In this document: positions 6,601-9,600 of the stretch, piece after piece
Layout: each line of letters begins with the position of its first letter
How positions within the stretch are numbered: position 1 is the first letter of the stretch
Origin: a virus
Taxonomy: Duplodnaviria > Heunggongvirae > Uroviricota > Caudoviricetes
DNA: 12,474 nt
IMG/VR virus record: IMGVR_UViG_2671180651_000010
Direction: 5' to 3' (one strand)
Made by a program: the position numbers

Positions 6601-9600
6601 AAAACGCTCTGTGCGCTCACTGGCTAACTGAGGCTGACGACGCGCTAAATTCTGAGTGGATAAGCCACGGTGCAATCTGGAATAACCCACCGTACAGCAA
6701 TATCAGGCCGTGGGTGGAAAAAGCCGCTGAGCAGTGCATACAACAGCGACAGACGGTAGTGATGCTTGTGCCAGAGGATATGTCTGTCGGATGGTTCAGC
6801 AAGGCTCTGGAGAGTGTTGACGAAGTTCGTATTATCACTGATGGACGGATTAATTTTATCGAACCATCGACAGGGCTGGAGAAGAAGGGAAACAGCAAAG
6901 GCTCCATGCTGCTGATTTGGCGACCGTTCATTAGTCCTCGACGGATGTTTACTATCGTATCCAAAGCGGCATTGATGGCGATCGGGCAGGGCGTCAGGAG
7001 GGCGACATGAGGCGACAACGACGAAGTTTCACCGACATCATCTGCGAAAACTGCAAATACCTTCCAACGAAACGCTCCAGAAATAAACGCAAGCCAATCC
7101 CAAAAGAATCTGACGTAAAAACCTTCAACTACACGGCTCACCTGTGGGATATCCGGTGGCTAAGACATCGTGCGAGGAATACAAGGTGATTGACCCAAAT
7201 CGAAGTTACGAACAAGAAAGCGTCGAGCGGGCTTTAACGTGCGCTAATTGCGGTCAGAAGCTGCATGTGCTGGAAGTTCACGTGTGTGAGCACTGCTGTG
7301 CAGAGCTGATGAGCGATTCGAATAGCTCGATGCACGAGGAAGAAGATGATGGCTAAACCAGCGCGAAGACGATGTAAAAACGATGAATGTCGGGAATGGT
7401 TTCACCCTGCATTCGCTAATCAGTGGTGGTGCTCTCCAGAGTGTGGAACCAAGATAGCACTCGAACGACGAAGTAAAGAACGCGAAAAAGCGGAAAAAGC
7501 AGCAGAGAAGAAACGACGACGAGAGGAGCAGAAACAGAAAGATAAACTTAAGATTCGAAAACTCGCCTTAAAGCCCCGCAGTTACTGGATTAAACAAGCC
7601 CAACAAGCCGTAAACGCCTTCATCAGAGAAAGAGACCGCGACTTACCATGTATCTCGTGCGGAACGCTCACGTCTGCTCAGTGGGATGCCGGACATTACC
7701 GGACAACTGCTGCGGCACCTCAACTCCGATTTGATGAACGCAATATTCACAAGCAATGCGTGGTGTGCAACCAGCACAAAAGCGGAAATCTCGTTCCGTA
7801 TCGCGTCGAACTGATTAGCCGCATCGGGCAGGAAGCAGTAGACGAAATCGAATCAAACCATAACCGCCATCGCTGGACTGTCGAAGAGTGCAAGGCGATC
7901 AAGGCAGAGTACCAACAGAAACTCAAAGACCTGCGAAACAGCAGAAGTGAGGCTGCATGAATATCTACGAAAGAATTGATGGCAGCAAATACCGAAATAT
8001 TTGGGTAGCTGGCGACCTGCACGGATGCTACACGAACCTGATGAACAAACTGGATACGATTGGATTCGACACCAAAAAAGACCTGCTCATCTCGGTTGGC
8101 GATTTGGTTGATCGCGGTACAGAGAACGTCGAATGTCTGGAATTAATCACATTCCCCTGGTTCAGAGCTGTGCGTGGAAACCATGAGCAAATGATGATTG
8201 ATGGCTTATCAGAGCGTGGAAACGTTAATCACTGGCTGCTTAATGGCGGTGGCTGGTTCTTTAATCTCGATTACGACAAAGAGACTCTGGCTAAAGTTCT
8301 TGCCCATAAAGCAGAAGAACTTCCGTTAATCATCGAACTGGTGAGCAAAGATAAAAAATATGTCATTTGCCACGCCGATTATCCTTGTGATAAATACGAG
8401 TTTGGAAAGCCAGTTGATCATCAGCAGGTAATCTGGAACCGCGAACGAATCAGCAACTCACAAGACGGGATCGTGAAAGAAATCAAAGGCGCGGACACGT
8501 TCATCTTTGGTCATACGCCAGCAGTGAAACCACTCAAATTTGCCAACCAGATGTATATCGATACTGGCGCAGTGTTCTGCGGAAACCTCACATTGATTCA
8601 GGTACAGGGAGAAGGCGCATGAGACTCGAAAGCGTAGCTAAATTTCATTCGCCAAAAAGCCCGATGATGAGCGACTCACTACTGGCCACAGTTTATTGGT
8701 TTTCGTAACTGAGTCATTTTATTATTTTATTGCAACTTTTAATCTTTTATAGTGCGAAATAAATGGAGCTGGCATTCATTTCGCACTTTATGTTTTTGTT
8801 GGACTTATGTTATTTTGATTGAATTCAATTCAGTTAAAAAAAGAAGGTGATTGCTCCATTTATAAATGAATAGTCATCCCCTGTCTTGAATTCTGATGTT
8901 ACTTTATTAAATGCTAGTGTGAAGGCTACAGGTGCATACCCAATTGTTGCGCCAACTTGATATTCATCAACAGTTTTGTTTAGCGATACTGTTGTTTGTT
9001 TCGTCTGTATTGTTTTTCCTTCGAGAGTATAGTTGCGATTGACATCTCGTCTTTCCATACCTGCAAAAATCTTGTATTTGAATCCGCTTGTATCGGACAT
9101 ATGCATTAAACCACGGGGAGCCAGCAGACCAAAGCCATTATCCGAATTGAAGGTTTTATCATTACCAATGGCAATGGTTGCGCCATATGCTACATATTGA
9201 AATAAGTTTCCAGTAACAGCAGAAACTTCAGGGTATAATCCAACATTAGCACCTAAAATATCCATACTTGGTGTCATGGATAGCATCCCTTTTACAGTAT
9301 AACCGTAGCGATTCTCTATTTGATCATCCCATGCATGATATTTTTCTGCCCCAATAATCTCATGAGCTTTATTTTGTACTTTCTGACCGCCTGCGTCGGG
9401 GCCAACAACACCTATGTCAGTACCTAATCGATAGCGAATCCAGTCATTCGCAAGGGAGTTCCATTCAATACCAGTGTGAGTGTATGCACTAAAAGCTCTG
9501 TCTCCAGTTACAGCTGTGTTGTGTCTTTTATTACTGCCTGATGGAGAGTAAATATCTTGCGCAATATGGAGAGATAATTGGCTCGAGTCTGAGATATCGT

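Follow-up and report, generated by a model that had tools for sequence, protein, structure and literature searches.

An open reading frame that begins like the lambda late antiterminator gene Q and stops after 29 codons raises the question of what drives the late genes of the virus carrying it, and whether the fragment marks a crippled prophage, a small gene in its own right or a remnant of recombination. The frame lies in a stretch of 12,474 nucleotides of a Caudoviricetes genome (IMG/VR record IMGVR_UViG_2671180651_000010), referred to below as the window. The initial annotation described it as a lambda-type Q cut off at the junction with AT-rich cargo, and proposed that the prophage, having no intact lambda Q, is either defective for late gene expression or relies on another antiterminator. 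The left-hand part of the locus consists of the following features:

7957..8622, plus strand: ninI, a Ser/Thr phosphatase gene (Pfam Metallophos, 3.4e-16; lambda NinI homologue in the phage 434 annotation)
8619..8708, plus strand: the Q' stub, a 29-codon ORF with codons 1-20 of lambda Q and a tail, LLATVYWFS, that comes from the junction and foreign DNA
8680..8696, no strand assigned: junction zone where the perfect match gives way to unrelated DNA, with 12/17 identity to lambda-type Q
8697..8833, no strand assigned: AT-rich spacer of the imported block, holding an 8-bp tandem duplication of ATTTTATT (8716-8723 and 8724-8731) and a hairpin
8748..8801, no strand assigned: hairpin of 14 pairs and one mismatch with a 7-nt loop, followed by TTATGTTTTTGTTG on the plus strand

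To the left of the stub lie ninE, ninF, ninG and ninI, the latter being the last gene of this lambda-like nin region, and a lambda-like N gene is found in the window at about 1615-1940. The ATG of the stub overlaps the stop codon of ninI in the form ATGA. Anchored on this ATG, positions 8619-8679 agree with lambda Q at 61 of 61 nucleotides, i.e., 20 codons, and residues 1-20 are all identical, as the initial annotation had read them; the frame then diverges and ends after codon 29, as was also described. A blastn alignment extends to 8619-8689 (lambda Q nt 1-71, 97.2% identity, E 4.6e-30), and a search of the whole window at both the DNA and the protein level found no lambda Q similarity past nt 71 or residue 25, which bears out the proposed absence of an intact lambda Q. 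The 29-residue sequence gave no Pfam match even at E<=1, whereas lambda Q and the Q of the E. coli RM14723 prophage (see below) each score 193 bits on PF03589, a profile that starts at lambda Q residue 23, past the part kept in the stub. The PHROG Q-like profile aligned with the stub over positions 1-24 only, and a PHROG of ~58-aa proteins has its first 24 residues in common with it. By the DNA homology of its 5' end the stub is a fragment of a Q-lambda family member, while not being a member itself.

In Q-lambda, residues 61-113 and 153-207 constitute the DNA-binding HTH body and residues 114-152 the zinc-ribbon arm, which together bind the QBE, sigma R4 and RNAP; residues 1-44 form the exit-channel torus only once Q has docked via body and arm, and residues 1-11 make up a helix touching the beta' zinc-binding domain (PMC9388147). 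Ending at codon 29, the stub has neither body nor arm and keeps only residues 1-20 of the N-terminal torus segment; consequently, it cannot act as an antiterminator. Its ribosome-binding site and ATGA coupling to ninI are intact, and a 29-residue peptide may be made. Compared with lambda Q and P22 gp23 (PF03589), the stub has the same first 61 nt and 20 residues and likewise overlaps the preceding nin gene in ATGA, but it is devoid of residues 21-207, no lambda/P22-type pR'-qut follows, and the antisense terminator within the gene is destroyed.

A complete antiterminator gene of another family is nevertheless present further to the right, where the window contains the following features:

8834..9793, minus strand: lpxR, lipid A 3'-O-deacylase family (Pfam LpxR, 6.8e-40; annotated in phage 434 and in RefSeq)
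9794..10121, no strand assigned: AT-rich region upstream of lpxR (GC ~0.27)
10131..10253, plus strand: ylcG/orf45-like small gene (434 annotation; phrog_2705, 2.1e-12; aligns to phage 82 orf45)
10268..10957, plus strand: intact gene of a 229-aa Q82-family late antiterminator (PF06323, phrog_304, identity to phage 82 Q)
10941..10989, plus strand: predicted Q82-type late promoter, with a -35 TTGCAA (10941-10946), 17 nt, and a -10 TATACT (10964-10969), from a promoter scan
11003..11031, plus strand: candidate tR', a terminator-like hairpin followed by T8, from a terminator scan

Late antiterminators belong to three unrelated families, Q21 (PF06530), Q-lambda (PF03589) and Q82 (PF06323), which fulfil one and the same function and are encoded at the same place in the genome (PMC9388147, PMC7171158). 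The protein encoded at 10268-10957 scores 306.3 bits on PF06323 against a cut-off of 25, covering profile positions 1-216 of 220, and 362 bits on phrog_304 (2.2e-108); it is identical to phage 82 Q at 203 of 229 residues (89%) without gaps, and no similarity to lambda Q was seen on comparison. A sequence search for a solved structure of the Q82 family found none. The gene starts 1.56 kb downstream of the stub, inside the window, with the nin region on one side and the lysis genes on the other; it is preceded by the ylcG/orf45-like gene, of the type that precedes Q82-type genes, and followed by the promoter, a -10-like element and the terminator. Positions 10122-10957 are 89.6% identical in DNA to the orf45-Q module of phage 82 (X92588), with the same order of the two genes; in phage 82 the module follows rus, whereas in the window it follows lpxR and the lambda-Q stub.

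The extended -10-like element, TGgTATGTT (TGnTATnnT), lies at 10981-10989, ~9-14 nt into the predicted transcript, and is a candidate sigma-dependent pause or Q loading site. The published pause position of phage 82 is +25. Literature searches did not find a published phage 82 pR' sequence, and conservation among six Q82-family phages (of Escherichia, Klebsiella, Salmonella and Enterobacter) was used in its place: the -35, the -10 and the TGnTAT motif vary little or not at all, and all six have a hairpin and a run of T further downstream. In appearance, segment 10941-11031 matches what is expected of a cognate pR'/pause/tR' unit, which would presumably be active as such. Within the hairpin at 11003-11024, an apparent compensatory change distinguishes the window from RM14723; no weight was placed on it, given that a G in the 3' arm also seems, by eye, to be missing from RM14723.

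Phage 434 (OL657226) and the window are 99.9% identical across 99% of the window's length, and prophages of STEC genomes, O103:H2 strains among them, match the window at 100%. Phage 434 has the same 29-aa ORF at the same place, from ninI to lpxR (Feiss et al. 2022, PMC9119081); the window differs from it in having the 8-bp ATTTTATT twice (8716-8731), past the end of the stub ORF, and in matching the STEC prophages, rather than the laboratory phage, completely. In the GenBank record of 434 the ORF is CPT_434_64 (UMO75328.1), an 'antiterminator-like protein' noted as an N-terminal fragment of lambda Q, while RefSeq calls it a pseudogene ('antitermination protein', incomplete, C-terminus missing). 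In the protein collection searched with the exact stub sequence and its cluster, the only descriptive names were 'antiterminator-like protein' and 'antitermination protein, partial', the latter given to a 26-aa member. The stub is therefore already known through these two annotations, and it is a standard product of lambdoid mosaicism.

These relatives bear directly on the supposed defect in late gene expression. The lambda-type Q does end after codon 20, as that reading assumes, but an intact Q82-family gene with a conserved promoter and terminator occupies 10268-11031. Phage 434, whose only full-length Q is this Q82-like gene, forms plaques, and its virions were obtained by liquid infection and purified for sequencing (PMC9119081); since it grows lytically with the same stub, the stub has no bearing on the choice of the Q that drives the late genes. 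Moreover, in an O103:H2 E. coli genome with a 100%-identical copy of the window, the prophage adjoins ybhC and has complete lysis, head and tail genes, so the lysis genes that the initial annotation suggested looking for beyond the window are indeed in place. We regard a defective prophage as extremely unlikely, and of the two possibilities initially offered it is the second, another antiterminator, that holds.

The extent of the foreign block was determined by comparison with prophages that retain the lambda-type arrangement. The RM14723 prophage has ninG, ninI and an intact 207-aa lambda-type Q, followed by membrane-protein, DUF3927 and holin genes as in the window. Its left arm (L010, 3034-4740) corresponds to window 6992-8689 at 96.3% identity and its right arm (L010, 5412-6856) to window 11004-12452 at 97.9%. 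The interval that separates the two arms measures 671 bp in RM14723, comprising the rest of Q and a stretch 91.7% identical to the pR'/qut of lambda and P22, versus 2314 bp in the window (8690-11003), made up of the spacer, lpxR, the ylcG-like gene, the Q82-like gene and the late promoter. Searches of window 8690-11100 with the lambda/P22-like qut of RM14723 gave no significant match, and lambda DNA to the right of Q had no match in the window. Thus, prophages of the RM14723 and 2B8 types have the same flanks as the window (ninG-ninI on the left; membrane protein, DUF3927 and holin on the right; 96-98% identity) but keep a full lambda-type Q with a lambda/P22-like qut in place of the 2314-bp lpxR-Q82 block of the window.

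The left edge of the exchange falls 61-78 nt inside Q. On the right, homology of Q82-type phages to the window ends at 10990, and phage 2B8, of the lambda-Q type, matches only from 11004, which places the edge at 10991-11003, just before the terminator stem. As judged from these alignments, what happened at the locus is a swap of a Q-plus-qut cassette, and the stub is its left scar. Very probably the 29-codon ORF is a functionless leftover of the 5' end of a lambda-family Q, dating from a module swap in a 434-type genome. A comparable event is known from the laboratory: in 434B, Q, the late promoter and the lysis genes were replaced by DLP12 DNA through a crossover in ylcG, so that Q and its promoter were also exchanged as a unit; there, however, the crossover took place in homologous ylcG sequences, while the natural joint cuts the coding sequence of Q and leaves a stub.

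The same comparison deals with a simpler scheme, according to which lpxR was inserted into an intact lambda-type Q whose 3' part is kept on the far side. The AT-rich cargo does abut the 5' end of Q, as such an insertion would require, but the window contains nothing of lambda Q past nt 71 in DNA or protein, what follows lpxR on the right is phage 82's ylcG/orf45-Q82 module, and the lambda/P22-type qut is gone as well; this scheme is almost certainly wrong. The breakpoint had been taken for the left edge of the cargo region, and a left edge it is, though of a 2.3-kb block that carries a replacement Q and a late promoter besides lpxR.

At the joint itself, the lambda Q alignment puts the breakpoint at 8680-8696, in agreement with the initial estimate of 8680-8690. 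The 12/17 identity of this zone has a probability of ~1e-4 against a background of 0.25, and no 17-mer of the cargo equals it; from 8697 to 8778 the identity to lambda Q is 23/82, i.e., at background. Among 118 phage records and the sampled E. coli alleles, no lambda-type Q accounts for the zone, the best one reaching 8694 at 90.8%. Illegitimate joining, guided by microhomology at a site that forms a hairpin, may be the simplest way to account for the zone, and an older diverged allele could be an alternative. The first 61 nt of Q were also considered as a recurrent mosaic boundary, since the matches of Emek and PS34 end at 8679, and this was rejected: these genes differ there only by local SNPs and are collinear lambda-type Qs.

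Beyond the joint the DNA is AT-rich, as initially described (GC 0.317 at 8701-9000 and 0.267 at 9751-10050, versus ~0.47-0.52 in the nin region). The perfect 10-bp inverted repeat reported at 8751-8787 was recovered (8751-8760 paired with 8778-8787), and it extends to 18-nt arms, 8748-8765 and 8773-8790, which are 89% complementary around the 7-nt loop. Folded as plus-strand RNA, the hairpin has -16.4 kcal/mol (z -2.9) and a U-rich tail, UUAUGUUUUUGUUG; on the minus strand it has -19.1 kcal/mol (z -7.7) and no U-tract. A consensus terminator scan did not call the hairpin at 8748-8790; the sites which that scan lists have perfect stems. From its folding it may plausibly serve on the plus strand as an intrinsic terminator that stops transcripts lacking N modification, and on the minus strand as a stem-loop at the 3' end of the lpxR mRNA, which is transcribed convergently. 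The Rfam scan of 8000-12474 revealed no known sRNA near 8600-8900.

Intact lambda-type Q genes contain, at nt 22-87, a minus-strand hairpin followed by U5 (-27 kcal/mol, z -4, by folding), and in the P22 record this element is annotated as terminating the antisense RNA a23 (paQ/a23). The junction at 8680-8696 cuts the upstream arm of the hairpin, and the window version does not fold (-11.1 kcal/mol, z +0.5). For this reason a role of the stub as a minus-strand terminator for the lpxR mRNA, which was also considered, was rejected.

The lpxR gene is missing at this position both in RM14723, the lambda-Q comparator, and in phage 82. Being absent from collinear relatives, flanked by low-GC DNA and located on the opposite strand, it qualifies by its context as a moron, a cargo gene that would be transcribed as a unit of its own. 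A scan for lpxR contexts in other species yielded a single locus, in Citrobacter (73% aa and 72% nt identity), with no phage genes nearby. The similarity is confined to the coding region and ends exactly at the lpxR stop codon, at 8834; hence, the spacer at 8690-8833 belongs to the phage module. Homology to phage 82 begins at ~10122, at the ribosome-binding site of ylcG/orf45, which delimits the lpxR cargo proper to ~8697-10121.

How widespread the arrangement is was assessed in complete E. coli genomes. Of 5,426 such genomes, 620 have a single copy of the cargo's left end (8700-8894), and 620 have the joint between Q' and cargo (8606-8800, counted when covered to at least 80%), the two sets having been counted separately rather than equated record by record. 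About 11% of complete E. coli genomes contain prophages of the 434 type; among the entries sampled, STEC/EPEC strains predominate. The joint stands behind ninI in 431 genomes and behind ninH in others, being identical in both cases; position 8606 separates a left side on which the ninI-type and ninH-type contexts differ from a right side on which they are identical. On the left, homology with phages of the lambda-Q type is limited to the retained 84 nt (8606-8689), and we infer that recombination must have used these as an arm on at least one occasion.

The stub ORF is unchanged in those copies of the joint that were sampled, which would speak for a functional small protein as its product. Such a protein could be, for instance, a decoy in which the first Q-lambda helix binds RNA polymerase against the lambda-type Q of competing phages. 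The intact ribosome-binding site, ATG and ATGA coupling to ninI would suit this role, as would the contact of the residues 1-11 helix with the beta' zinc-binding domain and the existence of the ~58-aa PHROG with the same first 24 residues. The unchanged ORF itself says little, however: the copies of the joint are ~98.5-100% identical in DNA throughout, so that conservation is silent on selection for the 29-aa frame. The tail residues come from junction DNA; the pR operon is silent in the lysogen, which could therefore not be protected; the Q-lambda torus forms only in a Q already docked via body and arm; and the descriptive names in the protein collection are those of an antiterminator fragment. 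A functional protein of this kind is, in our opinion, highly improbable. The narrower version, in which the peptide interferes during lytic growth with the lambda-type Q of co-resident or co-infecting lambdoid phages and thereby favours the Q82-driven genome, seems very unlikely too.

With the stub read as a scar of the module swap, the following history may be proposed. The ancestor would have carried ninI, a lambda-type Q, a lambda/P22-type pR'-qut, tR' and the downstream genes. The part from Q codon 21 to the base before the tR' hairpin would have been replaced by the 2.3-kb block, which brought the AT-rich spacer, lpxR on the opposite strand, the ylcG-like gene, the Q82-family antiterminator and its own late promoter with pause site. 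The joint probably arose once and then spread with the module, 8606-8689 offering the only left-hand homology through which the block could have moved between ninI-type and ninH-type phages. In present-day phages, early rightward transcripts from pR would have to cross the stub, the hairpin at 8748-8790 and 1 kb antisense to lpxR in order to reach the Q82-type gene, the read-through presumably being helped by the lambda-like N. The Q82-type protein would then switch on late transcription at its own promoter-proximal site, as family membership, the conserved elements and the viability of phage 434 suggest.

The stub is to be read, then, as a recombination scar and not as a sign of a crippled prophage, a distinction that matters little beyond correct annotation. 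Prophages of the 434 type carry lpxR and retain a complete Q82-type late-gene switch, and the locus illustrates how Q and qut are exchanged as one cassette, with the right edge just before tR' and the left edge inside Q.

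The lambda-Q stub, i.e., the 29-codon open reading frame whose codons 1-20 are identical to lambda Q, matched phrog_21867, a family of unknown function represented by a 58-position profile, at the protein level through its residues 1-24 (window 8619-8690; E 2.8e-11), and this match suggests that Q N-terminal fragments of differing truncation are carried by other phages. The sites considered in and to the right of the stub are:

8654-8686 (- strand): remains of the antisense paQ/a23 terminator
8716-8731: 8-bp unit ATTTTATT, two tandem copies
9966-9994 (+): sigma70-like promoter match
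12140-12344 (+): full-length match to the sRNA STnc100

In intact lambda-type Q genes, the antisense paQ/a23 terminator is located inside the 5' end. Its remnant in the window retains the U-tract and the downstream arm, while the terminator structure is lost, because the upstream arm is interrupted by the junction at which lambda Q identity gives way to unrelated AT-rich DNA. Just 3' of the stub stop codon, both copies of ATTTTATT are also found in the STEC prophages, whereas phage 434 (OL657226) has a single one; this copy-number difference looks like a slippage polymorphism.

In phage 434B (L003 6724-7333), the Q82-type cassette and the lysis genes were exchanged for DNA of the DLP12 prophage, which includes a short antiterminator of 127 aa and an IS5-disrupted nmpC. 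The ylcG-like gene served as the crossover point, and the lambda-Q stub and lpxR were kept, unaffected by this exchange.

When phage 434 and E. coli were searched, the alignment of the window consisted of two pieces joined together. In the left part of the window, within a minus-strand open reading frame, positions 482-521 are 40 consecutive N, i.e., bases that are masked or unresolved. A prophage of E. coli O103:H2 (NZ_AP038980), 100% identical to the window in sequence, has an IS3-family element (9460-10673 of the locus L016) inserted into its pL operon, with gam on one side and kil on the other, and the window start directly adjoins the right side of this element.

To the right of the Q82-like gene, STnc100 was matched with 41.4 bits (E 1e-6), i.e., below the Rfam gathering score of 47. 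A 2026 preprint (10.64898/2026.05.13.724894) put the sRNAs PasD1 and PasD2 in one group with STnc100 and reported Q and LpxR genes within 10 kb of these sRNAs in >98% of cases. Considering this proximity together with the match, a PasD/STnc100-type sRNA gene is probably situated between the DUF3927 and esterase genes.

Among the sigma70-like promoter matches of the region, the top one (TTTACG-17-TATAAT, 10/12) is oriented toward the Q82-like gene, and its position is within the AT-rich stretch separating lpxR from the ylcG-like gene; promoter-like sites in the region were not more numerous than in shuffled sequence. If active in a lysogen, this site would drive Q expression without dependence on pR.
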